Shown here: piece after piece, positions 8,503 to 63,002 of the stretch
Numbering within the stretch: position 1 is the first letter of the stretch
Layout: the number at the start of each line of letters is the position of its first letter
Source of the DNA: Thermoanaerobaculia bacterium
GTDB lineage: Bacteria; Acidobacteriota; Thermoanaerobaculia; Gp7-AA8
Reading direction: 5' to 3'
Length of the DNA: 64,000 nt
NCBI GenBank assembly: GCA_035482045.1
Contig: DATHRD010000063.1
Span: 2,541 to 66,540 of the forward strand
Position numbers and translations under genes: made by a program
The notes under the pieces: generated by a model
What the model was told of the DNA's origin: nothing
Seen by the model: the letters and a program-made list of their open reading frames with translations, nothing else
Database searches by the model: none

Positions 8503-8634
8503 TTCCCGCGTCTGGCACGCTTCACGCTATGCACACGATCAACCCGAGTCGATCGGGGACGCTGGCGAACGTAAGAGCGCGTCGATAATCCCTGAGGGGT
8601 CGACGCGCTTCGTGTTTATTGCGCCGCTTGCGCG

Positions 8635-8724
8635 GGCGTTGTCGGTTATCGGTTGTCGGGACCGCTACACGTGGTTCCCCGTCGCCCGTCTTTGACAACG
8701 AGACAACCGACAACCGACAACGCG
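8635..8724. repeat. heptad-repeat palindromic element (GCGTTGTCGGTTRTCGGTTGTCGGG ... GACAACCGACAACCGACAACGCGC)
   Basis: TTGTCGG heptads in inverted orientation around an about 40 bp core; copies at 9953, 62875 and expanded at 54957. Confidence 0.65.
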
Positions 8725-8732
8725 CGAAGCGC

Positions 8733-9902: not shown

Positions 9903-9952
9903 CGTTCAAAGCTCCTGGTTGGAATGGGGGTAATCGTAACATGCGCCTGCGG

Positions 9953-10051
9953 CGCGTTGTCGGTTGTCGGTTGTCTGCGCGCTGCGGCGCGCGTGGACGA
10001 GCGCTCAAGAACACGCCAGAGCCAACTCAACCGACAACCGACAACGCGCGC
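9953..10051. repeat. heptad-repeat palindromic element, second copy, on the other side of metK
   Basis: GCGCGTTGTCGGTTGTCGGTTGTC ... CAACCGACAACCGACAACGCGCGC; core resembles the copy at 62875. Confidence 0.65.
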
Positions 10052-10726: not shown

Positions 10727-13330
10727 CTACCCCTTCACCACGATGTTCACCAGCTTGCCCGGTACGTAGACCTCTTTCACGACCTCTTTCCCCGAGATCC
10801 ACTGCTGGACTTTTCCGTTGCCACGAATAGCTGCCAACACGACGTCCTTCTCTGGCGGGTTCGGGACCTCCACCTGTCCGCGCAGCTTGCCGTTGACCTG
10901 CACGACGATGGTGACGACATCCTCGACCATCAGCGCCGGATCGGCTTTCGGCCAGGACGATGTGAGGATGAAGCCCTCGTTGCCGAACATGCTCCACAGC
11001 TCCTCGGTGATGTGCGGCGCGAAGGGATGGAGGAGCTTGAGCAGCGTCGTGTAGGACTCGCGGAGCGTGCCCGCATCGGTATCGCCGGAGGCCAGCGCAT
11101 CGCCGATGGCGTTCGACAGCTCCATGAGGCCAGAGATGGCCGTGTTGAACTCGAAACGGTCGAAGCGCCGCGTGACGGCATCGATCGTCTGATGCGTCTT
11201 GCGCGTCAGTGGATGACGCGACGGTCCGACCAAAACCGCGGCGACTCGCTCGGCGACCGCCTCGCGGTCGGAAGACGATCGGCCGTCGAGTGCCAGAACC
11301 TGCTCGCCCATGTGCCAGACTCGATTGAGGAAGCGCGACGCGCCGTTGACGGCATCGTCCGACCACTCCGCCTCTTTCTCCGGCGGCGCGATGAAGAGAG
11401 TGTAGACGCGCTCCGTGTCGGCGCCATATTTTTCGATCAGCTCATCCGGCGGAACGACGTTGAAGTGCGACTTCGACATCTTGCTGGTCTCGGCGATGAG
11501 AGCCTTGCCTGTCCCTTTGTGCACAGGCTTCCCATCGACCCATTCGACGTCGGCGATCGACACCCACGTCCCCAGCTCGGCGTCGCGGTAACCCTCCTTC
11601 GTGATCATCCCCTGATTGAAGAGGCGCGTGAACGGCTCTTCGTAGTCCAGCAACCCCATGTCGTGCAGCGTGCGGCAGATGAAGCGCGCGTAGAGCAGAT
11701 GGAGGATGGCGTGCTCGATGCCGCCGATGTACTGATCGACCGGCAGCCAGCGGTTGGCCAGCGCCGAGTCGAAGATCTTCGTACCGTCCTTCGCGGAGAT
11801 GAAACGGGCGTAGTACCACGACGAATCGACGAATGTGTCCATCGTGTCGGTCTCGCGCCGCGCGGGACCCTGACAACGAGGGCAGGTCGTGTTGACGAAG
11901 CGTTCATCCTTTGCCAGCGGGTTCCCCTCGCGCCCGGTAAAGGGGACATCGAGCGGCAGTTCGACCGGCAGTTGCTCCTCCGGAACAGGAACGATGCCGT
12001 CGCGGTCGCAGAAGATCATCGGGATCGGCGTCCCCCAATAGCGTTGCCGGGAGATGAGCCAGTCGCGCAGGCGATAGCGGACCATCTTCCTGCCGATGAC
12101 CAGCCGCTCGATCTCTTCGATGATGCGTTCGATGGCTCTTGGTGTGGGCATGCCGGAGATGACTCCGGAATCGATTGCCATCGCGAACTCGTCCTTCACC
12201 ACAAACGCTTCGGTGAGGTTATCCACGTTCGGCACTTCCCTGGTCACCGGGGCGACTACCATTCGAATCGGCAGTCCGTACTGCTTCGCGAACTCGAAGT
12301 CGCGCTGGTCGTGCCCGGGCACGGCCATGATCGCGCCTGTTCCGTACTGCATCAGCACGAAGTTGCCGAGCCAGATGGGGATCTCTTCGTGCGTAAATGG
12401 ATTCGTGGCCGTCTTCCCGGTGAAGCGCCCTTCCTTCCCCGCCTCCTGCCGCTCCAGGTTCGACTGATTGCGCACGCCGGCGATCCACTGCTCGATCTCC
12501 GCGCGCTCCGGATTATCGGCGATGAGCGCCGCGACGTCGGGATGTTCCGGCGCCAGGACCATGAACGTCGCGCCGTAGATCGTGTCGGGACGCGTGGTGA
12601 AGATGCGCAGCGTTTTTCCTAACGACGGCACCGCGAACTCGACGTCGGCGCCGACGGAGCGGCCGATCCAGTTGCGCTGCATCAGCTTCACCTTTTCCGG
12701 CCAGTGCTCCAGCGTGTCGAGGCCCTCGTCGAGCCGGTCGGCGTAGTCGGTGATCTTCAGGAACCACTGCTCGAGGTCGCGCTGCACGACGATGGTGCTG
12801 CATCGTTCGCAGCGCCCGTCGATGACCTGTTCGTTGGCGAGCACGGTCTGGTCGGACGGGCACCAGTTGACCGGCGCCTTGGCGCGATAGGCCAGGCCCC
12901 GTTCATACAACTTCAGGAAGAGCCATTGGTTCCAACGGTAGTACTCCGGGTCGCACGAGGCCAGCTCTTTCGACCAGTCGTAAAGGATGCCCCAGCGGAG
13001 AAACTGCTTCTTCTCCCGCTCGATGTTCGAGAGCGTCCACTGCCGCGGATGGATGCCGCGTTTGATGGCGGCGTTCTCGGCGGGCAGACCGAAGGCGTCC
13101 CATCCCATGGGGTTGAGCGCGGCGCGGCCCTGCATGCGGAAGTACCGGTAGAGAGCGTCGCCCAGGATGTAGTTCCGGCCGTGGCCGACATGAAGGTCAC
13201 CCGAGGGGTACGGGAACATGTTGAGCATGTAGAACTTGTCGCCGGGCGCGGCGACATCGACCTCGGCCACCTTCGCATCGGCCCAGGCGCGCTGCCACTT
13301 CTCTTCGATCAGTTTCGATTCGTAAGGCAT
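10727..13330 (-). CDS. leuS: leucyl-tRNA synthetase
   Basis: MPYESKLIEEKWQRAW...PYPSGDLHVGHGRNY (HIGH motif)...KMSKS motif present; 867 aa. Confidence 0.97.
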   Translation of the reverse strand: MPYESKLIEEKWQRAWADAKVAEVDVAAPGDKFYMLNMFPYPSGDLHVGHGRNYILGDALYRYFRMQGRAALNPMGWDAFGLPAENAAIKRGIHPRQWTLSNIEREKKQFLRWGILYDWSKELASCDPEYYRWNQWLFLKLYERGLAYRAKAPVNWCPSDQTVLANEQVIDGRCERCSTIVVQRDLEQWFLKITDYADRLDEGLDTLEHWPEKVKLMQRNWIGRSVGADVEFAVPSLGKTLRIFTTRPDTIYGATFMVLAPEHPDVAALIADNPERAEIEQWIAGVRNQSNLERQEAGKEGRFTGKTATNPFTHEEIPIWLGNFVLMQYGTGAIMAVPGHDQRDFEFAKQYGLPIRMVVAPVTREVPNVDNLTEAFVVKDEFAMAIDSGVISGMPTPRAIERIIEEIERLVIGRKMVRYRLRDWLISRQRYWGTPIPMIFCDRDGIVPVPEEQLPVELPLDVPFTGREGNPLAKDERFVNTTCPRCQGPARRETDTMDTFVDSSWYYARFISAKDGTKIFDSALANRWLPVDQYIGGIEHAILHLLYARFICRTLHDMGLLDYEEPFTRLFNQGMITKEGYRDAELGTWVSIADVEWVDGKPVHKGTGKALIAETSKMSKSHFNVVPPDELIEKYGADTERVYTLFIAPPEKEAEWSDDAVNGASRFLNRVWHMGEQVLALDGRSSSDREAVAERVAAVLVGPSRHPLTRKTHQTIDAVTRRFDRFEFNTAISGLMELSNAIGDALASGDTDAGTLRESYTTLLKLLHPFAPHITEELWSMFGNEGFILTSSWPKADPALMVEDVVTIVVQVNGKLRGQVEVPNPPEKDVVLAAIRGNGKVQQWISGKEVVKEVYVPGKLVNIVVKG

Positions 13331-13432
13331 GGAGCGGCGAAGTATAAACGGGCCGGCACGGGCGGCATTTGTGCGTTTGCACGTCAGGCCGCATTTCTCA
13401 CACTCTCACTGGAATCGTCGGCACTCTGTACC

Positions 13433-13652
13433 CCGTCGAGAGCCCTTCTCCCCCGCGGTTTCTTGCGGGGGAGAAGGTGCCGACAGGCGGATGAGGGGGC
13501 GGTTCTCACGGCGAAGTTGACTGTTTTCAATCGTTTCCACCCTCCCGTTCATGAAAGTAGTCCACTGCTCTGCAAGAGCCAAAGCCCCCTCATCCGCCTT
13601 CGGCACCTTCTCCCCCCCGCTGAAAAACGCGGTGGGGAGAAGGACTCTCGAT
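13433..13652. repeat. about 220 bp MITE-like dyad element in the leuS 5' leader region: terminal hairpins plus 25 bp inverted arms around an about 90 bp core
   Basis: CTTCTCCCCCGCGGTTTCTTGCGGGGGAGAAG + GGTGCCGACAGGCGGATGAGGGGGC ... GCCCCCTCATCCGCCTTCGGCACC + CTTCTCCCCCCCGCTGAAAAACGCGGTGGGGAGAAG. Confidence 0.55.
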
Positions 13653-13715
13653 GAACACTGTGCCGGCGATTTCAATCAGATTGTGAGAAATCCAGGTTTG
13701 GGTAGGCAATCGTCA

Positions 13716-14085
13716 GTCTCGGGGTATGGAACGACAGGTCTCGGGGTCTGGTGCGCCAAGTCCCGGGATCCGGAACGTCAGGTCTCGGGGTGCGGAACGT
13801 CAGGTCTCCGCGTGCGTAACGTCAGGTCCCGGGGTCCGGAACGTCTAGTCTCGGGGGTGGGGACGTCAGGTCCCGGGGTCCGGAACGTCTGGTTTCGGAG
13901 GTGGGGACGTCTAGTCTCAGGGGTGGGGACGTCAGGTCCCGGGGTCCGGAACGTCTGGTCTCGGGGGTGGGGACGTCAGGTCCCGGGGTCCGGAACGTCA
14001 GATCTCGGGGGTTGGGACGTCAGGTCTCGGGGTCCGGAACGTCAGGTTTCGGGGGTCGGGACCGGACGGGCGCACCCCCGGACTG
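13716..14085. repeat. tandem array of about 17 copies of a 22 bp unit (consensus GTCYCGGGGTSCGGAACGTCAG), with a 44 bp higher-order alternation
   Basis: direct reading; units are contiguous with no spacers, so not CRISPR. Confidence 0.9.
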
Positions 14086-14215
14086 GACGATTCACCGCCC
14101 GTACTGAACCGTTCACAGTGCGGACTGGACAATCAGTGCGAGGAACCGGGCGATTCACCGTGCGGACCGGACGATCCACCGTGCGGACCGGACGCCGCGC
14201 ACAGGGCCCGTCACG
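14086..14215. repeat. second short tandem array, about 6 copies of an about 21 bp unit (CGGACYGGACGATYCACCGTG)
   Basis: direct reading; abuts the first array and the dtd stop. Confidence 0.7.
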
Positions 14216-14645
14216 GCCACACGAACGTAACCGGCCCGTCGTTCTCCAACGCCACGATCATCATTTCCCGGAAGCGGCCGGTCTTCACCTCGATGCCGGT
14301 CGATGCCAGCTCCGCGACGAACAACGCGAACATCGTCCGGGCCCGCTCCGGCTCCTCGGCGTTGTCGAAGCTGGGGCGGCGTCCGCGGGCGATGGAGCCC
14401 GCCAGCGTGAACTGCGACACGGCCAGAATGGCACCGCCGGCCTCGGTCACGTCGCGGTTCATCTTCCCCGCGTCGTCGCTGAAGATGCGCAGCTCGCGGA
14501 TCTTCTTCGCGGCGTCGCGCATGGCCGGTTCGGAGTCACCCTTCTCGACGGCAGCCAGGACGAGCAGGCCGGTTCCGATCTCCGAAACCAGCTCGTCGCC
14601 GACAGTCACGGATGCGCGCCGCACGCGCTGGATGACACACTTCAC
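14211..14645 (-). CDS. dtd: D-aminoacyl-tRNA deacylase
   Basis: GTG start giving VKCVIQRVRRASVTV...; RIFSDDAGKMN...SQFTLAG...RPSF...NDGPVTF matches Dtd throughout; 145 aa. Confidence 0.9.
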   Translation of the reverse strand: MKCVIQRVRRASVTVGDELVSEIGTGLLVLAAVEKGDSEPAMRDAAKKIRELRIFSDDAGKMNRDVTEAGGAILAVSQFTLAGSIARGRRPSFDNAEEPERARTMFALFVAELASTGIEVKTGRFREMMIVALENDGPVTFVWP

Positions 14646-14793
14646 AGCGGCGGATTCTACTCGCGGTAGAAAAACGCACAGGTTCTCGCCCCTCGGATAA
14701 AATACCCGGACCCACACGACGCCCGAGAGCCTCATCTCTCGCGCGGCACGTCCGCGCGCATGTGGACTGAAACAATCGAACAGGAGAATCCAA

Positions 14794-15992: not shown

Positions 15993-16512
15993 AAGCGTAG
16001 AGCGGGCGTCCTCGCCCCTACGCGCTAACTTACGCTGGCATCCTCCCGAGAATCCCTGCTGTATAGCCGCGATAGCGGCCAAAGACGATAGCCAGGGGTG
16101 CGAGCGCTTCTTGCGAGCACCCCTGGTCATCGACGTCAATGCATGTCGTGCCGCGTCAGCGGCACTGGACGTCATCGGACGACTGTGACTCCACTCCAGT
16201 GCCGCTGGCGCGGCACAGAACCATGGCGCCTGGTTACCAGGGGTGCTCGCAAAAAGCGCTCGCACCCCTGGCTACCTTCCGTTGCCGCTATCGCGGCGTT
16301 TGGCCTTAGGCGTTGCGTTTACGTTAGCGCGTATGGGCGTCCCGCCTGCTCCCGGCGGGCGTCCTTGCCTGACGGTGGGGCCGAGGGCGTCACCACTTCG
16401 GTTCCCGAAGCGGCTTCCGGGCGGTCCTGCGATCAAAGACTCGGAAGTCTCACGGAAACCACCGGCGGGCGAGGACGCCCGCCGGGAGCAGGCAGAGATG
16501 CCTGCTCTACGC
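15993..16512. repeat. left copy of an about 520 bp highly structured element forming a long inverted repeat with 17575-18110
   Basis: about 90 % identical to the reverse complement of 17575-18110 over about 330 bp; contains palindromes CCAGGGGTGCGAGCGC..GCGAGCACCCCTGG (x2), TGCCGCGTCAGCGGCACTGG..CCAGTGCCGCTGGCGCGGCA, and end-to-end pairing GCGTAGAGC..GCTCTACGC. Confidence 0.85.
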
Positions 16513-17574: not shown

Positions 17575-18110
17575 GGCGAACCCGCGGAGAGCGGGCATCC
17601 TGCCTGCTCCCGGCGGGGGTCTCGCCCGACGGTGGGGACGAAATCATCTCCAAAATGTCGGGCCAACACGCCGACGCCTAACCCGCGCTTCGAGGTTCAA
17701 CCCTGCTCTTGCCGGGACCCACCGCCGGGCGAGACGCCCGTCGGGAGCAGGCAGGATGCCTATACGCGCTGACTAAACGCAACGCCGAAGCCCAAACGCC
17801 GCGATAGCGGCAGCGGATGGTAGCCAGGGGTGCGAGCGCTTTTTGCGAGCACCCCTGGTAACGAGGTGCCATGGTTCCGTGCCGCGCCAGCGGCACTGGA
17901 GTGGAGCCACAGTCGTCCGATAACGTCCAGTGCCGCTGACGCGGCACGACATGCATCGACATCGATGACCAGGGGTGCTCGCAAAAAACGCTCGCACCCC
18001 TGGCTACCGTCTTTGGCCGCTATCGCGGCATACACAGCAGGGATTCCCTGGGAGCACGCCAGCGTAAGTTAGCGCGTATGGGCAGGATGCCCGCTCTCCG
18101 AACGCAACGC
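17575..18110. repeat. right copy of the about 520 bp structured element (inverted relative to 15993-16512)
   Basis: see left copy; outer end ...GCGCGTATGGGCAGGATGCCCGCTCTCCGAACGC mirrors the left outer end. Confidence 0.85.
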
Positions 18111-18602: not shown

Positions 18603-18627
18603 AGGTTTGTGATCACTCAGTCAATCA

Positions 18628-18742
18628 GTGATTGGTAGATTAGTAGATTAGTCGATTAGTGGATTAGAACCGATCAGAACCAGGCATCCGGACCACTCCA
18701 CGAATCCACTGATCCACTAATCTACTAATCTACTAATCTTCC
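18628..18742. repeat. AT-rich imperfect palindrome built from TAGATTAG octamer repeats, between two same-strand genes
   Basis: GATTAGTAGATTAGTCGATTAGTGGATTAG ... CCACTAATCTACTAATCTACTAATC. Confidence 0.55.
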
Positions 18743-32394: not shown

Positions 32395-32705
32395 ACTCGC
32401 GGAGTTCGTGATTAGACTTCGCGAGTCCATGAATTGACTCTGGGAGGCAATTAATTGACTCCGGGAGGCCATGAATTGACTCCGGGAGGCAATTAATTTG
32501 ACTCTGCGAGGCCATGAATTGACTCCGGGAGGCAATTAATTTGACTCTGGGGGGCAATTAATTGACTCCGGGAGGCAATTGATTTGACTCTGGGAGGCCA
32601 TGAATTGACTCGGGAAGGCCATGAATTGACTCTGGGAGGCCATGAATTGACTCCGGGAGGCCATGAATTGACTCCGGGAGGCAATTAATTGACTCCGGGA
32701 GTCCG
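32395..32705. repeat. tandem array of about 14 copies of a 21-22 bp unit (CATGAATTGACTCCGGGAGGC alternating with AATTAATTGACTCCGGGAGGC)
   Basis: direct reading; contiguous units with no spacers. Confidence 0.9.
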
Positions 32706-32789
32706 TGAATGGACGCGTTGGCTCACGAACGAGACCCTCGCCAACGACAGAACGCTCCGTCGATCCGACGTCTTGCCTCTGAATACGCC

Positions 32790-47227: not shown

Positions 47228-47336
47228 AGCTCAGAAGGATGAAGGATGAAGGATGAACGGTGAAAGCGTGAAGCAGACAAGAGCTTACCTCTTCATCACC
47301 TTCATTCTTCATCCTTCACTCTTCACTCTTCATCCT
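47228..47336. repeat. imperfect hairpin built from (GAAGGATGAA)n / (TTCATCCTTC)n repeats between mobA stop and moaC start
   Basis: GAAGGATGAAGGATGAAGGATGAACGG ... CTTCATCCTTCACTCTTCACTCTTCATCCTTCACC. Confidence 0.55.
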
Positions 47337-47877
47337 TCACCCTTCCCCACTCTTCCGGCGTATTCACATTCATCAACGGCTCGCCCGCGAACGTCGATCG
47401 CAACTCCTCCTCGGCGACGATGTCGGCCTCTTCCCCGCTGGTGAGGCCTTTGAGATCGTACCGCCCGGCCGCGACCCGCTGCTCGATCCGCGCCAGCAGC
47501 TCGGGCGCATAACCGGCGCAGAGCATCTGGGTCTTGCCGCTCCAGACAGGCGCGAGGAAGAGCGCAGGCGAGCGCTCGAAACGCTCGCGAAGATGCCGCA
47601 GGATCGCGGTGGTGATGAGCGGATAGTCGACGGCCAGGATGAAGCAGCGCCGGCGGGCATGATCGAGAGCACGCGCGACGCCGAAGATCGGGGCCTGTTC
47701 CTCGTGCGCGCTCTCGTAGATCGTCGTGATCGCCGCCGCAGTTCCGCCGTGCCGCTGCACGGCGATCAACTCCTCGAACGCTGACGATGCCGCGGCCACG
47801 ACGCGGTCGAGGAACAGTTCCGTCTTCGGACGTCCCATCCTTCGCGACTGACCACCGATCAGGATGTAGCAGTTCAC
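47323..47877 (-). CDS. mobA: molybdenum cofactor guanylyltransferase
   Basis: GTG start giving VNCYILIGGQSRRMGRPK...; C-terminal NVNTPEEW matches MobA; the long upstream extension in the ORF track was rejected. Confidence 0.8.
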   Translation of the reverse strand: MNCYILIGGQSRRMGRPKTELFLDRVVAAASSAFEELIAVQRHGGTAAAITTIYESAHEEQAPIFGVARALDHARRRCFILAVDYPLITTAILRHLRERFERSPALFLAPVWSGKTQMLCAGYAPELLARIEQRVAAGRYDLKGLTSGEEADIVAEEELRSTFAGEPLMNVNTPEEWGRVKDEE

Positions 47878-50929: not shown

Positions 50930-51160
50930 CGCGTCCATCTGCGGATGAATCAGATCTCGGCAGATTCGGGCTGGGAGCGAACGAACATTGACGCGACGCG
51001 TTCGTACCGAGGGAACGAATCCGCAGATGACGCAGATGAACGCAGATAAAAGCGTCCATCGGTTCTCCATCCGGCGGCGATACTCAAGACCGACGATCCG
51101 CGGATGAAAACGTCCTCCATCTGCGTACATCTGCGTCATCTGCGGATAAGCCTTTTCAAT
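50930..51160. promoter_or_regulatory. dyad of triplicated 9-mers (GCAGATGAC/GCAGATGAA x3 ... CATCTGCGT x3) upstream of iscS
   Basis: CGCAGATGACGCAGATGAACGCAGATA at about 51028; CCATCTGCGTACATCTGCGTCATCTGCGG at about 51117. Confidence 0.4.
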
Positions 51161-51324
51161 CCCGGACTGCGAGACCGCGTCACCAATCGACCCGGCACCT
51201 AACGTTACGGTCCCGCGGACGCGGTGCCGCTCCCGGCTGGGTCCCGAGTGCGATACCATTCGGCGTGCGGCACCGCTCCGCTGACCTTGGAACGTTGGAC
51301 GCTGCGCGCCGTGGAGAAAAACTT

Positions 51325-52050
51325 ATGCATAAGCTTTTCTTATTCGTCGGAATAGCGGTTCTCTTCAATCGAGCAGCGTTCGCAGCCGACGGCTGTGAAC
51401 AAGGAACGTTCCCAGTCAGATCGATCAGCGGTTTCGACCTGTCTAAACCCGGCAATTTGGAAATTGCCATGGATGCATTAAAGTTAGATGAAGGGGACGA
51501 ATTGGAGTTTGCGTCGTCCCACGAAAGCGGTCATAAAACTACGAAGGTTCGGACTTGTCGAGAATATGACGCAGCGATCGAACAGAGACTCTTACTTATG
51601 ACTGGGACTCAGCGGACACCTGAATTTCTGCGTGAGTGTAAAGTCTTGAGATTTCTGAAGAAAGCAAACGCGGCGAGCAGTAGTTGTATCGAGGGGTATC
51701 AATTGACCAAAAAATCGCCGGACGAACTGCCTCCTTCTCTTGGTTACGTTATATCGGGCGAACAAGCAGAAGCAGTCGATAAAGCGGAACAGGTCAATTG
51801 GAGTTGGAGAAAATTTTCGCCAGAACTGGAATTTCATGTTTTGAGCCCCACAACGCTTACTGCCACAGGCCAGGGTGTAGTCGATAAATTAGAAGTCATG
51901 GGATTTGGCGATTTCAATCATGATGGTATCCAGGATATGCTGGTATGGATCAGCGACTACGGTGGAGGAACGTTGGTCCACTACGATGCAATTGTCCTGA
52001 CGCGAAAAGATAAAAAGTCTGGTTTTCACACGTTAGCCAGAATTGAGTGA
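51325..52050 (+). CDS. secreted hypothetical protein encoded in a low-GC islet
   Basis: MHKLFLFVGIAVLFNRAAFAADG signal peptide; clearly AT-richer codon usage than its neighbours; C-terminal GDFNHDGIQD (FG-GAP-like). Confidence 0.55.
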   Translation: MHKLFLFVGIAVLFNRAAFAADGCEQGTFPVRSISGFDLSKPGNLEIAMDALKLDEGDELEFASSHESGHKTTKVRTCREYDAAIEQRLLLMTGTQRTPEFLRECKVLRFLKKANAASSSCIEGYQLTKKSPDELPPSLGYVISGEQAEAVDKAEQVNWSWRKFSPELEFHVLSPTTLTATGQGVVDKLEVMGFGDFNHDGIQDMLVWISDYGGGTLVHYDAIVLTRKDKKSGFHTLARIE

Positions 52051-52124
52051 CTTCGGGTTTCGCGTCCAACAAATCGGTGGGCGTTCCATCGTTGGCCGGG
52101 AACCGGTAGGATCGGACACTGCTT

Positions 52125-52799
52125 ATGAGCTTTCTCATCACCGCCACCCTTCTTTTCGCCACGAAGCTTTCGATCGAAAGCGTCAATCCCGGGAATCAAG
52201 GGAAGGTTTGTTTCGCGACGACCCTGGACGCGAAGGAGTGGATGATGCTGGCGAGGAAGCAGCTCGGACCGGCGGTGATCGACCACCCGACGAAGGAGAT
52301 GCTCGACGAGCACTACTCGGAAATGGATGGCGGCAGCACGTTCGCATTCCAGGTACCGGCGCCCCCGGGGATTGCAGCCGAGGAGGTGACGGTGCTGCAC
52401 CAGGCCGGAGTCCGCGTCGTGCGTGCGGATACTCTGCAGGGAACGCTCCTGGTCCACGGCAAGGAGCGGGAGGCAAACGGGGTGGCGTGCGGCAGCTTGC
52501 CGGACGGAGTCACGCCACTCTTCGTCCTCCGCAACGGCCAGCGGAGCGAGTACCTCGGCAGTGCGACCCTCGTCGATTCGAAAACGTTCCGGTGGAACGA
52601 CAGGCGCTATGCAGTTGGCCAGACACTTCAGGCTGGCGACCTGCGTGCCGTCGCGATCGTGCGCATCGGCATGGACCTCATCGCGGCACTGGTGGGCGCG
52701 GAAGGCAGCGGCGCCTGCGACGGAATCCACGCCCTCATCGATTTGACGAAGGCGGACCTCCCCGTCATCGCGCGCAATACGTGGGGTTGCGGGGATTAA
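52125..52799 (+). CDS. hypothetical protein
   Basis: 224 aa ORF; competes with antisense ORF 52026..53090; no family recognised. Confidence 0.3.
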   Translation: MSFLITATLLFATKLSIESVNPGNQGKVCFATTLDAKEWMMLARKQLGPAVIDHPTKEMLDEHYSEMDGGSTFAFQVPAPPGIAAEEVTVLHQAGVRVVRADTLQGTLLVHGKEREANGVACGSLPDGVTPLFVLRNGQRSEYLGSATLVDSKTFRWNDRRYAVGQTLQAGDLRAVAIVRIGMDLIAALVGAEGSGACDGIHALIDLTKADLPVIARNTWGCGD

Positions 52800-53289
52800 T
52801 GCCGCCCGGGTCAGTCTAAAGTCTACAAAACGCACTTCATCCGTCGCCAGTTCCACGGAGAAAGCGGTCCATCCGGATGCCTGCCGCGCTTCGCCGGCGA
52901 TACTCGTGTCTTCGAGCGATATTTCTCGGAATCCTCCGCAACTGATCGTGTCCGTTTTCCAGAGGCGGCCGCTCTTTCCGAACAGTTGCACGCACATGCC
53001 GTTGTGTTCGACGAGGAACAGCGTCCTGGGCGCATCCATCGTCACTGCGGCGACGTCCGTGCCGATCCGCTCCACGAGGGTTCGCGTCACGAGGATCTAC
53101 TTGTTGGATACTGGCATGATGCCGGAAACGGCGAAGCGGACGCCGAGTCGGATCCTGTCTCGCACACGGGGGTAGTCGCCGATCTCCGCATGCCCGCCGC
53201 TGTCGATCGGCCCGTCGTCGATGCTGATCGTCGCGTACAAGTCGCCGATGAGGGACGGACGGAGACGCGATGGCTTCGAACAACGGATC

Positions 53290-53580
53290 GACTGTCCCTG
53301 ACTCAGCAATTTCTGGTCATCAGTTGCTCATTTAGCGGATCAGATCACCAATTTTGGAATCTCAATTGTCAAGTTTTCGACTTCGATCATGACGTTTGCA
53401 ACTTCGATCATTACGTTTGCGATATTAATCACGAATTTTATGACTGATACCATTACATCAAACGGCTAAATCACCAATTTGACGGATTGTATCGCGAACT
53501 TCGTAACTTCTATCATGAACTTTGCGATTCTATTCATGAGCTTCGCGCCTAACGTCACCAGTTTGATGAGTTAGATCGTT
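53290..53580. repeat. AT-rich region of degenerate direct repeats (ATCACCAATTTGR x3; ACTTCGATCATKACGTTTGC-like about 20-mers x4)
   Basis: direct reading; GC far below the window average. Confidence 0.5.
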
Positions 53581-53710
53581 GAAACATCTGCGGAGACGCC
53601 ATCGTCTCTATCAGAAAAGCGATCACTCGTCACAAGGACACCGCACTTTCCGCCAGCTTCGCCATCAATGAAGTCCGATTCGCCTTCCATGCTGCCGGAT
53701 TCGCCATCGT

Positions 53711-55513
53711 TCAGCTCCTCTTGTGCCGCCGTCTCCGCTTCGTCGCCTCCACCGGCGCCTCGGCGTCGGCGGCGCGGCGCACCCTCTGCGCGAACTGCTG
53801 CCACTGGCGAAAGGCGTCCACGTGTTTTCCTGACGAGAGCGCGTAGAGCTCGAGCAGCGCCAACGCGTCGCTGAACGGCTCGCGGTAGACGAACTTGAAC
53901 TGCGCCCGACGATCGGTCGGCGGCTCCAGCAGGCGCCAGAGCGTGTCGAGGGCCGTCTCGATCTGATGCCGCGTCCCCGCCGCCAGCGCCATGCGCGTAC
54001 ACATCGGCTGAATCAGCTCGCGGATGAAGAGGATCACTTCGCCGATCTTCATGCGCGACGCGCGCCGCGCCTCCTCCCGCTCCAACTCCTGGAGAATCCA
54101 CGGAAGGAACAGCACCGAGAGCAGCACCGGATCGGAGATCTTCCGCCCGGCCTGCACGGTGCGGTCGAGCACCTCCAGCATCTTCCAGAAGTACTGCGAC
54201 TGATCCCCGACGATGGCCTTGTAGACCTCGGGGACGAGTGGATCGAGCAGGCCGCTGTCGACCATCAGGCGGATGGCCCCGCGCGACCAGCCGCGCCGCA
54301 GCAGTTCGAGGATCTCCTCGGAAACGCGCGGGGCGGAGGCCTTCAGGATCTCGGTCTTGTGACGGATGATGGCGTCATAGGTGGCCGGCTCGATCTCGAA
54401 GCCGAGGCGTGAGGCAAACTCGATGGCCCGCATCATCCGCACCGGATCCTCGCGGAAACGGACGTCGGGATCGCCGATCACCCGCACCCGTTTCGCCTCC
54501 AGGTCTTCCAGCCCGCCGACGTAGTCGATCACCGAGAAGTCGGCGATGTTGTAGAAGAGCGCGTTGATGGTGAAGTCGCGCCGCCGCGCGTCCTGCAGGG
54601 GCGACCCGAAGGTGTTGTCGTCGGTGATCAGCAGCTCCTCGGCATCGTCGGCCCGCTCGGGCTCGCGCCGGAAGGTGGCCACCTCGACCAGCATGTCCTG
54701 AAAGATGATGTGTACGAGGCGGAAGCGCCGGCCGATGATGCGGCTGTTGCGGAAGAGGCGCCGGATCTCGGCCGGATGCGCGTCCGTGGCCAGGTCGAAA
54801 TCCTTCGGCGTCCCGCTCATCAGCAGATCGCGTACGCTGCCGCCGCAGAGATAGGCGCGGTAGCCGCTGCGGTGCAACCGGTAGAGGACTTTGAGGACGT
54901 TCTCCGGGATCCGCCGCCGCGAGATGGGGTGGTCGCTGCGGTCGATGACGACGCCGGGATCGTCGGGGATAGGTTCGACGGGGATTGGTTCGACGGGGGT
55001 CGGGAGTCGGGGGTCGGGGGTCGGAGAGAGGGTCAGATCAGGCTCATCGTTGTCGGCTGTCAGTTTTCGGTTCGCGGGGGTCGGGGGTCGGGGGTCGGGA
55101 GTCGGAGGTAGGTCACTGCTGGTTGTCGGTTGTCGGTTGACGGTTATCGCGGGGGCCGGGGGTCGGGGGTCGGGCGTCGGAGAGAGAGCGTTGTCGGTTG
55201 TGGGTTGTGGGCTGTCGGTTGTCGCGGGGGTCGGGAGTCGGGGGTCAAGGGTCGGAGAGAGATTGTTGTCAGTTGTCGGTTGAGGGTCGTCGGTGATCAG
55301 GTGAGATGGCAGGTCCGGCTCATGAGAACTGACGAGCTCCGACCGCCGACCCCCGACTCCCGACTCCCGTTCAGGGTCTGGTTCACCGGAGGCGTCTAAC
55401 TCCGACCCCCGACCCCCGACCCCCGACTCCCGTTCAGGATCAGGTCCATCGGAGGCGACTAACTCCGACCCCCGACCCCCGACTCCCGACCCCCGATTCT
55501 CGATCCCGCTCAT
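53711..55513 (-). CDS. pcnB: poly(A) polymerase I / tRNA nucleotidyltransferase family protein with an about 200 aa low-complexity N-terminal extension
   Basis: core NVLKVLYRLHRSGYRAYLCGGSVRDLL...PKDFDLATDA...RRDFTINALFY matches PcnB. No canonical start codon lies between the repeat region and the core. The ATG at 55513 overlaps the lepB stop (ATGA). Confidence 0.75.
   Translation of the reverse strand: MSGIENRGSGVGGRGSELVASDGPDPERESGVGGRGSELDASGEPDPERESGVGGRRSELVSSHEPDLPSHLITDDPQPTTDNNLSPTLDPRLPTPATTDSPQPTTDNALSPTPDPRPPAPAITVNRQPTTSSDLPPTPDPRPPTPANRKLTADNDEPDLTLSPTPDPRLPTPVEPIPVEPIPDDPGVVIDRSDHPISRRRIPENVLKVLYRLHRSGYRAYLCGGSVRDLLMSGTPKDFDLATDAHPAEIRRLFRNSRIIGRRFRLVHIIFQDMLVEVATFRREPERADDAEELLITDDNTFGSPLQDARRRDFTINALFYNIADFSVIDYVGGLEDLEAKRVRVIGDPDVRFREDPVRMMRAIEFASRLGFEIEPATYDAIIRHKTEILKASAPRVSEEILELLRRGWSRGAIRLMVDSGLLDPLVPEVYKAIVGDQSQYFWKMLEVLDRTVQAGRKISDPVLLSVLFLPWILQELEREEARRASRMKIGEVILFIRELIQPMCTRMALAAGTRHQIETALDTLWRLLEPPTDRRAQFKFVYREPFSDALALLELYALSSGKHVDAFRQWQQFAQRVRRAADAEAPVEATKRRRRHKRS
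54957..55505. repeat. about 550 bp expansion of heptad repeats: (GGGGTCG)n and (GTTGTCG)n blocks followed by their inverted complements (CGACCCC)n
   Basis: direct reading; same TTGTCGG heptads as the elements at 8635, 9953 and 62875. Confidence 0.85.
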
Positions 55514-56268
55514 GGACTTTCGCCGGCCTCGCCCTCGGGCGTCAAACCCGGCGTGAAGTGGTATTTGCTGTCGACGATGAAGAACATCCGTTCCCATCGC
55601 GTCTTCGTGAAGAAGTGGACGGCCACTCCTAGCAATTCCTTGACCCTGGCCGAGCTCGGGGCGTCCTGCGGCGGCGGCGTTCCCTCGAAGGACCAATAGA
55701 CCATGAAGGCGCGCCCCTTGATCATGGAGCGGGGCACGGTCCCCCAGTATCGGGAGTCGCTGGAGCGGTCGCGGTTGTCACCCATGGCGAAGTACTGGCC
55801 ATCGGGGACGAGGTACGGCCCGAACTGGTCCCGCGATCGGTACGGTTCCGGGAGCTGGGGCCGCGGAGGATAGATCGTCGGATCGACATGGATCACGTAT
55901 GGCTCCGACTGGGGCTTGCCGTTGATGGAAACGACCTTGTCGTGGACTTCCACCGTGTCCCCGGGCAGGCCGATCACGCGCTTCACGAAGTCGGTGTCCG
56001 GCTGCAGGGGATACCGGAAGACGATGATGTCGCCGCGCCGGATCGCGCGCAGCGGCAGCAGCCCGCCGAGCGACGTGCCCGGTCCATAGATGAATTTGTT
56101 GACGATGATGTGATCGCCGACCTTCAGGTTGTCTTCCATCGATCCCGTCGGGATCTTGAACGCCTGAAAGGCGAAGATACGGGCAAAGTTGACGAAGATG
56201 ACGGCGATCAGGAGCGCTTCGTAGTACTCGCGGGTCGTTGATTTCTTTACGGTTTCATCGACGGCCAT
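55510..56268 (-). CDS. lepB: signal peptidase I
   Basis: PTGSMEDNL (Ser nucleophile box), GDIIVFRYP, VKRVIGLPGD (Lys box), YFAMGDNRDRSSDSRYWG. Confidence 0.92.
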   Translation of the reverse strand: MAVDETVKKSTTREYYEALLIAVIFVNFARIFAFQAFKIPTGSMEDNLKVGDHIIVNKFIYGPGTSLGGLLPLRAIRRGDIIVFRYPLQPDTDFVKRVIGLPGDTVEVHDKVVSINGKPQSEPYVIHVDPTIYPPRPQLPEPYRSRDQFGPYLVPDGQYFAMGDNRDRSSDSRYWGTVPRSMIKGRAFMVYWSFEGTPPPQDAPSSARVKELLGVAVHFFTKTRWERMFFIVDSKYHFTPGLTPEGEAGESP

Positions 56269-61681: not shown

Positions 61682-62863
61682 ATGATGCGAACAACGCTCG
61701 CGTTCCTTCTACTCGGCGTCGCCACGGCCGCGGGCGCCCAATCATCGCTGCAGTTTCACGGGTACCTCGCCGCGCGCGAGATCTACGTCAACGCCCAGCC
61801 CGGGTGGCTTCAGGACGGCGTGGGGCGCTTCGATGTCGGCGCGGCCAATCCCGACGACCATCACCTCGTCAACGTCGACAGCGCGCAACTGGGCCTCGAC
61901 TGGACGCCATCCTCCTGGTTCCTGTTCCACGGAGACGGCGTGGCGCGGCATGAGCAGTCCGGCTCCGGCGGCAAACGCGCCGGCATCGTGCAGGCCTACC
62001 TCGAAATCCACAACCCGCACTGGCGCCTGCGCGCCGGCGAGTTCTGGCTGCCGACGTCCCGGGAGAACACGGATCCTCTCTGGACGTCGAAGTACACGAT
62101 CACCTACTCCGCGCTGAACTCGTGGATCGCCCAGGAAGTGCGGCCGATCGGCGCGGACCTGCAGTGGTCGCCGAGCTTCTACGTGACGGTCGGCGGGACA
62201 GCCTTTCGAGGGAATGACACGATGGGCACCGCGCTGGCCGCCCGCGGCTGGACGCTCGGTAACTATCTGACCACGTATGACGAGCGCATCCCGCTGCCGG
62301 ATTACGACTCGGTGCGGCCGATCGGCGCGGATCTCGACAACAAGAACGGCTATTCCGAGCGCGTTCGCGTGTCCCTTCCCGAGCGTGCCATGCTCCAGGT
62401 TGCACACATCGACAACCGCGCACCGATTTCTCCGGTCGATCTGAAGGGTCAGACGCCGTGGCAGACGCACTTCAACGTCGTCAGCGGAGAGGCCGGTACG
62501 ACGGGCGACACCACGGTCGCGGCGGAATGGGCGTACGGCTCGACCGCGGTGGGATTCCCGGGTGGCCGCTTCACCATGGATTTCGATACCGAGTACCTGC
62601 TGGCCTCTCACAAGTTCGGTACGGAGCGTGTCAGCGCACGCGTCGAGCGATTCTCGACGCGCGATGCGTTGCGTCCGCCCACCGACGGCAGCCGTGAGAA
62701 CGGCCGCGCCTGGACCGTGGCCTGGATGCACGATGCCAGCGCCAACGCACGCACCGGCATCGAATACGTGAGGGTCAGCGGCAACCGCCCCGGCCTCGCG
62801 CCAGACTTCGATCCACGCACCGGCGGTTCGACGGTAACGATCGAGTACCGGTACGGGTTCTGA
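61682..62863 (+). CDS. secreted, probable outer-membrane beta-barrel protein of unknown function
   Basis: signal peptide MMRTTLAFLLLGVATAAGAQ; alternating amphipathic pattern; ends with aromatic ...YRYGF; paralog starts at 63028. Confidence 0.5.
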   Translation: MMRTTLAFLLLGVATAAGAQSSLQFHGYLAAREIYVNAQPGWLQDGVGRFDVGAANPDDHHLVNVDSAQLGLDWTPSSWFLFHGDGVARHEQSGSGGKRAGIVQAYLEIHNPHWRLRAGEFWLPTSRENTDPLWTSKYTITYSALNSWIAQEVRPIGADLQWSPSFYVTVGGTAFRGNDTMGTALAARGWTLGNYLTTYDERIPLPDYDSVRPIGADLDNKNGYSERVRVSLPERAMLQVAHIDNRAPISPVDLKGQTPWQTHFNVVSGEAGTTGDTTVAAEWAYGSTAVGFPGGRFTMDFDTEYLLASHKFGTERVSARVERFSTRDALRPPTDGSRENGRAWTVAWMHDASANARTGIEYVRVSGNRPGLAPDFDPRTGGSTVTIEYRYGF

Positions 62864-62874
62864 GTCTGCGCCTT

Positions 62875-63002
62875 GCGCGTTGTCGGTTGTCGGTTGTCGG
62901 GCGCTGCGGAGCGCGTGGGAACGAGCGTTCAAGACGCGCGCCCACGTCCGACATTCAACGGGCACCAACAACCAACCGACAACCGACAACCGACAACGCC
63001 GC
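62875..63002. repeat. heptad-repeat palindromic element separating the two outer-membrane paralogs
   Basis: GCGCGTTGTCGGTTGTCGGTTGTCGGG ... CCGACAACCGACAACCGACAACGCC; core similar to the copy at 9953. Confidence 0.7.

Follow-up and report, generated by a model that had tools for sequence, protein, structure and literature searches.

The stretch of DNA analysed here, which we call the window, is 64 kb of a metagenome-assembled genome (MAG) of an uncultured, soil-type member of the Thermoanaerobaculia (Acidobacteriota). We are concerned with a composite tandem-repeat element in one of its spacers, between dtd (D-aminoacyl-tRNA deacylase) and leuS (leucyl-tRNA synthetase). This spacer of 880 bp is among the longest non-coding gaps of the window. 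Both genes are read from the minus strand and, relative to the element, leuS is the downstream gene in the direction of transcription. In window coordinates, the layout is as follows.

10727..13330 (-): leuS, leucyl-tRNA synthetase, 867 aa (Pfam tRNA-synt_1_2, tRNA-synt_1, Anticodon_1)
13331..13367 (-): leuS-proximal conserved segment with a TTTATACT box, the end of the box lying 10 nt before the ATG (comparison with relatives)
13368..13392 (+): leftmost, degenerate partial 22-bp unit (..GCACGTCAGGCCGC), separated from the array by the palindromic insertion
13393..13691 (unstranded): 299-bp palindrome, similar to a MITE (miniature inverted-repeat transposable element) (inverted-repeat pairs I1-I4)
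13692..13708 (+): remainder of the degenerate leading unit (CCAGGTTTGGGTAGGCA) (alignment with the sister strain L138)
13709..14060 (+): array 1, 16 contiguous 22-bp units, consensus ACGTCAGGTCTCGGGGTCCGGA (Tandem Repeats Finder, unit-by-unit cutting)
14050..14080 (+): junction, in which CGGGGGT (14050-14056) is complementary to ACCCCCG (14074-14080) (sequence)
14061..14209 (+): tail, about 5.5 degenerate 21-bp units, consensus CGGACCGGACGATTCACCGTG (14079-14194), plus terminal CCGCGCACAGGGCCC (Tandem Repeats Finder, repeat-family search, homology, nhmmer)
14211..14645 (-): dtd, D-aminoacyl-tRNA deacylase, 144 aa, GTG start, stop codon 14211-14213 (Pfam Tyr_Deacylase, 1e-49)

Arrays, palindrome and leuS-proximal segment

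A first-pass annotation made from the sequence alone had placed two abutting tandem arrays between leuS and dtd. The arrays are real and statistically unambiguous, and the strong Pfam matches bear out the identity of both genes; a LeuS protein identical to that of the window is in the database as leucine--tRNA ligase of a Thermoanaerobaculia MAG. Tandem Repeats Finder delimits a 22-bp array at 13700-14054 and a 21-bp array of 5.5 copies at 14079-14194. The consensus 22-mer has nine matches in the window at up to three mismatches (0.00 expected in shuffles) and the consensus 21-mer has three (0.01 expected); neither was found outside the array within the 64 kb. From 13706/13709 to 14060 the register of array 1 is perfect, with zero indels. 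Units 6-13 alternate between ..GGGGTCCGGA and ..GGGGGTGGGG (..TCCGGA versus ..GTGGGG units), which makes a 44-bp higher-order repeat; Tandem Repeats Finder scores the array 350 at period 44 and 100 at period 22. The annotated count of seventeen 22-bp units is fair if the degenerate left unit is included, but only 16 units are clear.

The right end of the element is sharp, CCGCGCACRGGG(CCC) standing 2 nt from the dtd stop codon. The C-terminus of dtd (..ENDGPVTFVWP*) is undamaged and is the same as in relatives. In a second independent assembly of the same organism, L001 (ENA ERZ27253567), the spacer is base-for-base identical, so the array is no artefact of one assembly. Units that follow one another head to tail without spacers, 16 of 22 bp and then about 5.5 of 21 bp, are what is expected of a minisatellite. 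Contiguous 22-bp units without unique spacers are also not clustered regularly interspaced short palindromic repeats (CRISPR), as the annotation had rightly said.

While its description of the intergenic region was right for the arrays, it overlooked the separate 299-bp palindrome (13393-13691) between the array and leuS. The two arms of the palindrome, of about 108 nt, each contain a small hairpin of their own and enclose a loop of 83 nt. The orthologous spacer of L138 lacks the palindrome, GGACGTTAGGCGTAGGTA there being continuous with the first unit ATCGTCAGTCTCGGGG, and the 1.4 Mb of fetched loci yielded no second copy; hence it is not part of the array element. The alignment with L138 shows it to be an independent insertion that entered the left-most, degenerate unit at a later time. 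Its only Rfam matches are sub-threshold ones to microRNA-hairpin models, which arise because the palindrome is a long hairpin.

Next to leuS, the sequence gccgcccg..gcccgTTTATACTtcgccgctcATG is present in three relatives (L126, L130 and L138) regardless of what lies upstream, and the TTTATACT box, about 10 nt upstream of the ATG, is kept in all compared dtd-leuS relatives. The hexamer TATACT occurs once in the window, in this segment. We infer that the box may be the start-proximal promoter of leuS itself, untouched by all insertions. A sigma-70 consensus scan of 13250-14300, which includes the leuS-proximal segment, returned no promoter site.

Dispersed copies, strain variation and the insertion site

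Metagenome contigs were scanned for exact matches to the 17-nt core ACGTCAGGTCYCGGGGT. Apart from 40 isolated single matches, which is the chance level, the scan found two loci, L117 and L091, with 5-9 exact cores at 22-bp spacing. These are different contigs, each longer than 100 kb, of one Joint Genome Institute (JGI) metagenome. In L117, 19 units are followed by the same junction and the same tail of 21-bp repeats as in the window; its positions 350-898 are homologous to window 13711-14209 (array, junction and tail), and the homology ends there. The flanks of L117 are unrelated to dtd and leuS, and its tail points towards the 3' end of a gene for a permease of macB/FtsX type. In L091 there are 19 units with one unit like those of the tail; at a distance of about 90 nt follow two or three inverted units (ACCCCGAGACC) and then the start of a plus-strand gene. 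When the translated array was compared with 5.8 billion proteins, the single match was P0001, a spurious 'hypothetical protein' called across the array copy of L125, the orthologue of L117 in another metagenome.

The composite element therefore lies at no fewer than three types of non-homologous intergenic locus: dtd-leuS (window and L138), the 3' side of macB (L117 and L125) and L091. Since it recurs at two non-homologous sites other than the one in the window, it represents a dispersed repeat family and is no local oddity. A tail of about 130-150 nt is conserved between the paralogous loci (nhmmer tail model and alignment). L125 and L138 stem from one metagenome, an indication that at least these two copies (dtd-leuS and macB) sit in a single organism. 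Searches with hidden Markov models of the unit and of the tail over the 1.4 Mb of fetched loci gave no extra copies.

The first-pass annotation had suggested a variable number of tandem repeats (VNTR), and unit number does differ between strains, in whole units, at both loci for which orthologues are available (window and L138; L117 and L125). In the sister strain L138, whose LeuS is 97.3% identical and whose four-fold degenerate sites are 9.7% diverged, the orthologous dtd-leuS spacer holds the same composite with 17 units versus 16 in the window. Six of these 16 (units 1, 4, 5 and 14-16) recur unchanged in L138, and unit 2 does so with 2 differences in 22 positions. The interiors of the arrays differ: L138 has no ..GTGGGG units, and the window has no counterpart of an 88-bp block with ACATCAAGTCACGGGGTTTGGA and ACCTCAGG.. 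units that is repeated twice in L138. L117 and L125, the pair at the macB locus, have 19 and 16 units respectively, the differences being clean 44-bp and 22-bp indels between flanks that are 92-97% identical, and the two tails differ by whole 21-bp units. Fixed edges combined with block-wise turnover of the interior are the signature of minisatellite slippage or unequal recombination. What had been named as speaking against the annotation, one length everywhere and no second locus, was found in neither respect: lengths vary and there are two further loci.

LeuS places the window in an uncultured lineage of Thermoanaerobaculia (Acidobacteriota). The gene order ssb-dtd-leuS-lptE-...-metK is kept in many relatives; the dtd-leuS spacer is not. 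Its length and content in relatives are given below, with the identity of their LeuS to that of the window.

L130: LeuS 90% identical; spacer 26 bp; empty (TGA-cgcaggcg-TTTATACT-tcgccgctct-ATG)
L002: LeuS 75% identical; spacer about 55 bp; empty
L131: LeuS 91% identical; spacer 378 bp; small membrane-protein gene
L126: LeuS 91% identical; spacer 513 bp; different palindromic element
L137: LeuS in the same 90% cluster; spacer 1.2 kb; two small genes
L127-129: LeuS 91% identical; spacer 1.7 kb; 553-aa open reading frame (ORF), no Pfam match
L132: LeuS 87% identical; spacer 3 kb; DUF885 plus a RelE/HTH toxin-antitoxin pair

The 22-bp array is absent from every spacer in this list, as fits a recent insertion that can be dispensed with. 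With spacers ranging from 26 bp to 3 kb and differing in content, the site is an insertion hotspot. The comparison makes it probable that the compact dtd-leuS arrangement is ancestral and that leuS, irrespective of its upstream neighbourhood, is expressed from a promoter of its own close to the start. Across the genus, the fillers of this spacer include small membrane or lipoprotein genes. In the relatives compared at the macB locus, L133-L136 (MacB 89-90% identical), the DNA downstream is non-homologous and delimits neither an insertion nor a target-site duplication.

The relation between the two arrays deserves a separate comment. An alignment of the tail start (GCACCCCCGGACTGGACGATTCA) to array 1 in reverse complement scores 29, while shuffles score 20.0 +/- 3.3 and 10 of 500 reach 29. 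An inverted match between unit and tail was also found separately in L117 (18-23 nt, 74-83% complementarity). The tail start is thus a diverged inverted copy of the 22-bp unit. At the junction, the last unit (14050-14056) pairs with 14074-14080 in a stem of 7 bp; L125 has a double, pair-preserving change in this stem (CGGAGGT/ACCTCCG) and L117 has one mismatch. The possibility that the whole 21-bp array is an inverted 22-bp array was considered and rejected, as only the first 34 nt or so align (p ~0.02) and the other 21-mers do not clearly do so. The 16-bp array of L126 consists of two forward units, a 60-nt loop and then eight inverted CCCCGAGACCGCGCAA units; L091, with its array, loop and inverted units, follows the same plan, and the two have the GGTCTCGGGG core in common. 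The window also holds many smaller palindromes whose arms are tandem heptamers or octamers. Because this plan is common to L091, L126 and the small palindromes of the window, the two abutting arrays can be read as one asymmetric palindromic element. If so, they would be an extremely asymmetric and partly degenerate member of a lineage-wide class of palindromes armed with tandem repeats.

Possible nature of the element

Does the element show signs of being maintained by selection? A comparison of the window with L138 gives, in the tail, 14 differences over 150 positions (9.3%) and no indel; in the left-edge units 7.3% of positions differ. The corresponding figures for four-fold degenerate sites are 43 of 442 (9.7%) in leuS and 10 of 83 (12%) in dtd. 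The tail and the left-edge units thus diverge at the synonymous-site rate, and there is no detectable purifying selection on them.

We consider it probable (about 0.6) that the block is one copy of a lineage-specific, non-coding, dispersed, near-neutral and strain-variable repeat element that bears a minisatellite. Such an element would consist of a variable number of 22-bp units, an inverted partial unit able to form a short hairpin, a few degenerate 21-bp units and a short terminal sequence. The ancestor common to L138 and the window organism would have received the copy under study directly behind the dtd stop codon, and dtd and leuS, which are only 26-55 bp from each other elsewhere among the relatives, would have been separated by it. 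Since leuS retains its own start-proximal TTTATACT box, the insertion would have been tolerated. Later the array would have changed by gain and loss of whole blocks of 22, 44 and 88 bp; the block pattern is seen directly in the alignments, and slipped-strand mispairing or unequal recombination between units is the likely mechanism. The outermost units and the tail would merely have drifted, and the unrelated palindromic element would subsequently have been inserted into the left end.

Of the dispersed elements that have been described, two families come closest to this one. BrickBuilt of Porphyromonas gingivalis is a minisatellite inside a MITE (Klein et al. 2015, PMC4596501). It has spacer-less 23-nt repeats in 1-23 copies per site and about 19 copies per genome; it is intergenic, with leader and tail modules, conserved and variable positions in the unit and a copy number that varies between strains (PMC4596501). 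The element described here is similar in its unit length (22 versus 23 nt), absence of spacers, tail module, intergenic position, strain variability and division of the unit into conserved and variable positions. One BrickBuilt copy even adjoins leuS, by coincidence (PMC4596501). The two are not related in sequence and belong to different phyla. Here, unlike in BrickBuilt, only the tail is conserved, and no terminal inverted repeats, insertion sequence (IS) relative or promoter-like site were found.

The pneumococcal BOX elements have the structure boxA-boxB(n)-boxC, with a boxB of 45 bp in 0-8 copies, and number more than 100 per genome (Croucher et al. 2011, PMC3049150). Their two defined end modules pair with each other, longer arrays vary more between strains, for which slipped-strand mispairing and unequal crossover have been proposed, and other small repeats insert into them (PMC3049150). 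The present element is likewise a dispersed intergenic composite with a variable tandem middle module, into which a foreign repeat, here the 299-bp palindrome, has been inserted. It differs from BOX in having 22-bp units in 16-19 copies, one recognised end module and three locus types known so far. With these three types it shares with BOX and BrickBuilt the presence of several copies at non-homologous intergenic sites. In the manner of these two families, the array itself is most likely near-neutral selfish or junk DNA; no sign of a service to the host was found.

Other tandem-repeat families are more distant. Mycobacterial interspersed repetitive units (MIRU), used as VNTR markers, have units of 40-100 bp that often carry short ORFs coupled to flanking genes. 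The common ground is a minisatellite family scattered over intergenic sites within operons, with a unit number that is polymorphic between strains; but our unit is 22 bp long and its gene-sense strand has a TGA in every unit in one frame, so it is not of the MIRU kind. The short and long tandemly repeated repetitive sequences (STRR and LTRR) of cyanobacteria are heptamer and 37-bp repeats, respectively. They resemble the repeats of the window, where heptamer arrays are many, in being genome-wide intergenic arrays of short units, often present as inverted sets, while the phylum and the sequences differ. We know of no established function for STRR and LTRR, as for the window array.

Several observations weigh against a simple near-neutral repeat. 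The three right-edge units are identical between the window and L138 at 66 of 66 positions, where about six differences would be expected at the neutral rate; this could be due to gene conversion or to selection. In the 64 units of the four arrays taken together, conservation is 86-100% at positions 1-10, 12-16 and 20, three or four alleles occur at each of positions 17-19, and positions 11 and 22 have two forms, a pattern that hints at constraint on a core of 16-17 nt or at sequence-specific amplification. Both the edge identity and the core pattern could also reflect gene conversion together with a few inherited founder variants. As for dispersal, the window, L117/L125 and L091 have no leader in common. 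In the complete elements of L138 and L117 no terminal inverted repeats were found, only matches between unit and tail, and no target-site duplication was recognised, the array-less relatives holding different fillers at both loci. Finally, the three known locus types come from a metagenome scan and fetched loci. That the element is a MITE is not supported either, as no terminal inverted repeats of IS type were found in it and there is no transposase in the window.

Other explanations can be suggested. One of them, phased protein-binding sites, was already offered in the first-pass annotation. The core, lying on one face of the helix in each 22-bp unit (two turns), might be bound cooperatively by a predicted lineage-specific protein; the array could then insulate, anchor the nucleoid or form a platform for regulation upstream of leuS, in the way of plasmid iterons or of centromere repeats of the sopC type. 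The 22-bp register is indeed strict, with almost no indels across the 64 units of the four loci; the core ACGTCAGGTCYCGGGG(T) is conserved next to a 3-nt linker that is hypervariable in every array, and the right-edge units are more conserved than neutral sites. The GGTCTCGGGG core turns up with other periods in relatives (eight 16-bp units in L126, inverted 24-bp units in L091), and in all three locus types a gene starts some 150-400 bp from the array. However, close strains vary freely in the number of units and in the make-up of the interior, the array is lacking in near relatives that have these same genes, and the conserved tail drifts at the neutral rate. The window contains one solitary core site, with about one expected by chance, and no regulator, rep or par gene lies nearby. 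The orientation to the neighbouring gene start in L091 differs from that at the other loci, and the core/linker pattern is also explicable by inherited variant units or by sequence-dependent amplification. Phased binding is therefore unlikely in our opinion. Distinctly unlikely, too, is a broader version in which the core is the site of a lineage-specific DNA-binding or nicking protein that both constrains the core and drives its amplification. The many repeat-armed palindromes and minisatellites of these Thermoanaerobaculia genomes, several of them with GGTCTCGGGG, would then be products of one undescribed system.

If the array is transcribed, as a 3' untranslated region or read-through of dtd, as antisense or as an independent small RNA, its repeated structure could make it a protein sponge, a terminator or a stabiliser. 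The tail abuts the 3' end of a gene in two of the locus types (dtd and macB), although the gene context is reversed in L091. The G-rich plus strand, which is antisense, folds better than shuffles (z = -3.3); the strand that transcription of dtd and leuS would produce does not (z = -1.35). The compensatory change in the junction stem of L125 is a single instance, and the tail evolves at the neutral rate. At gathering thresholds Rfam 15 has no matches in the window, T-box or other aminoacyl-tRNA synthetase leaders included, and at E <= 5 its only matches in the spacer are generic hairpin models on the neighbouring palindrome. No tRNA or transfer-messenger RNA genes were found in the window, and the scan of 13250-14300 gave neither a promoter nor an intrinsic terminator. 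A role as an RNA element thus seems highly improbable.

Contiguous direct repeats of 22 bp are the classic format of iterons, and one may ask whether the array derives from the iterons or centromere of an integrated or former plasmid or phage replicon. The gamma origin of R6K has seven 22-bp iterons and sopC of F has 12 repeats of 43 bp; such arrays adjoin rep or par genes on replicons and have a fixed number of units. The likeness lies in contiguous, helix-phased direct repeats of 22 or about 44 bp, and the 44-bp unit with its GGGAC..GTCCC dyad recalls sopC. But the neighbourhood of the array is chromosomal housekeeping DNA that is syntenic in many relatives, unit number is variable, there is no AT-rich region, and among the ordinary chromosomal genes of the 64 kb there is no rep, par, integrase or transposase gene. 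No match was found among 72,556 plasmids or 50,697 phages, and a scan of viral contigs gave one match, at chance level. We regard a replicon origin as very remote. That the array encodes a protein repeat (22 residues per 66 bp of the plus strand, as P0001 was called by JGI in L125) is hardly credible, even though all three plus-strand frames are nearly stop-free across the array and a 372-aa ORF (13551-14669, plus strand) exists: that ORF starts inside the palindrome and runs antisense through dtd, the 22-bp period is indivisible by 3 so that the reading frame is shifted between the 16- and 17-unit orthologues, which differ by 22 bp, L091 has stops in all frames, there is no Pfam match, and the only match among the 5.8 billion proteins is another copy of the array.

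Other repeats in the window and the significance of the family

Intergenic tandem repeats of several families take up about 3% of the window, an unusually high density for a bacterium. A second large minisatellite (32415-32714) has 14 units of 21 bp (GACTCCGGGAGGCCATGAATT) with a 43-bp alternation of CCATGAATT and CAATTAATT variants, and is placed in the 620-bp gap that follows the second gene of a paralogous DUF11/beta-helix pair. At 54960-55507 there is a 550-bp heptamer complex, with (CGGGGGT)n and (GTTGTCG)n in a 75-bp repeat (x3.3), continuing with inverted (CCGACCC)n in a 63-bp repeat (x2.5). It is upstream of a gene for a PolyA_pol/CCA-adding enzyme. The long ORF of this gene (53711-55696) has probably been drawn too far, through the arrays, as its Pfam domain begins at residue 281. 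This complex holds most of the canonical G-quadruplex motifs of the window. Array 1, also considered as a G-quadruplex candidate, has a GC skew of +0.27 but no such motif, even with loops of up to 12 nt.

Three dispersed palindromes (8630-8725, 9950-10050 and 62875-63000) have arms of (GTTGTCG)x3 and (CGACAAC)x3 bracketed by GCGCG, and two of their loops are similar (..gcgctgcgg.gcgcgtgg.a.cgagcg.tcaaga..); they have the look of hairpins built from repeats. They are situated in the spacers flanking metK, one of which borders lptE, and just after an ORF without Pfam match (61682-62863). In the metK-side spacers and in that after ORF 61682-62863, relatives hold different short arrays. Sets of inverted short repeats are found at 18619-18738, 47234-47345, 51022-51144 and 2392-2484. 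They comprise five copies of GATTAGTA versus five of TCCACTAA, GAAGGAT versus CCTTCAC heptamers, CGCAGATGAA versus CATCTGCGTA, and a 42-bp palindromic repeat (x2.2). The stretch 51000-54000 has a GC content of 0.52-0.57 versus about 0.65, ORFs without Pfam matches and different 21-bp direct repeats (x2.4) at 53373-53431, 53496-53547 and 53658-53708; it may be foreign DNA.

Larger and possibly mobile repeats are present as well. Inverted copies of about 300 bp (15995-16297 and 17798-18100) bracket a DinB_2/acetyltransferase region, and both are 91-93% identical to the single copy in L001 (6964-7265). L001, otherwise identical, departs from the window exactly at 16297, into LodA and methyltransferase genes. 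Either the strains are rearranged relative to each other here or an assembly was joined at the repeat. Another difference between the two assemblies is a one-base indel (window 8834, L001 14497) near the 3' end of metK, giving a MetK of 389 aa in the window ORF versus 371 aa; it is probably a sequencing or assembly difference. Next to the tail in L117, a palindromic element of about 125 nt (898-1025; GAGGAC(C/T)CTTCG..CTGAGCG.. type) lies between GCACGGGG direct repeats. It is absent at the corresponding position 826 of L125, where a related copy occurs at about 880-950. Small palindromic elements of this kind appear to be actively moving in the lineage.

The practical value of these findings is modest. 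The array is a ready-made VNTR marker with which strains of this lineage can be told apart in metagenomes. On the other hand, arrays of this kind break short-read assemblies and attract spurious gene calls, of which P0001 and the 372-aa ORF are examples. Whatever the element is, it belongs to a dispersed minisatellite family that has not previously been described, in an uncultured class of Acidobacteriota, the Thermoanaerobaculia. The density of repeats may point to a repeat-generating process specific to this lineage. If a single repeat-generating system of the kind suggested above does exist, its arrays might insulate or regulate neighbouring genes.

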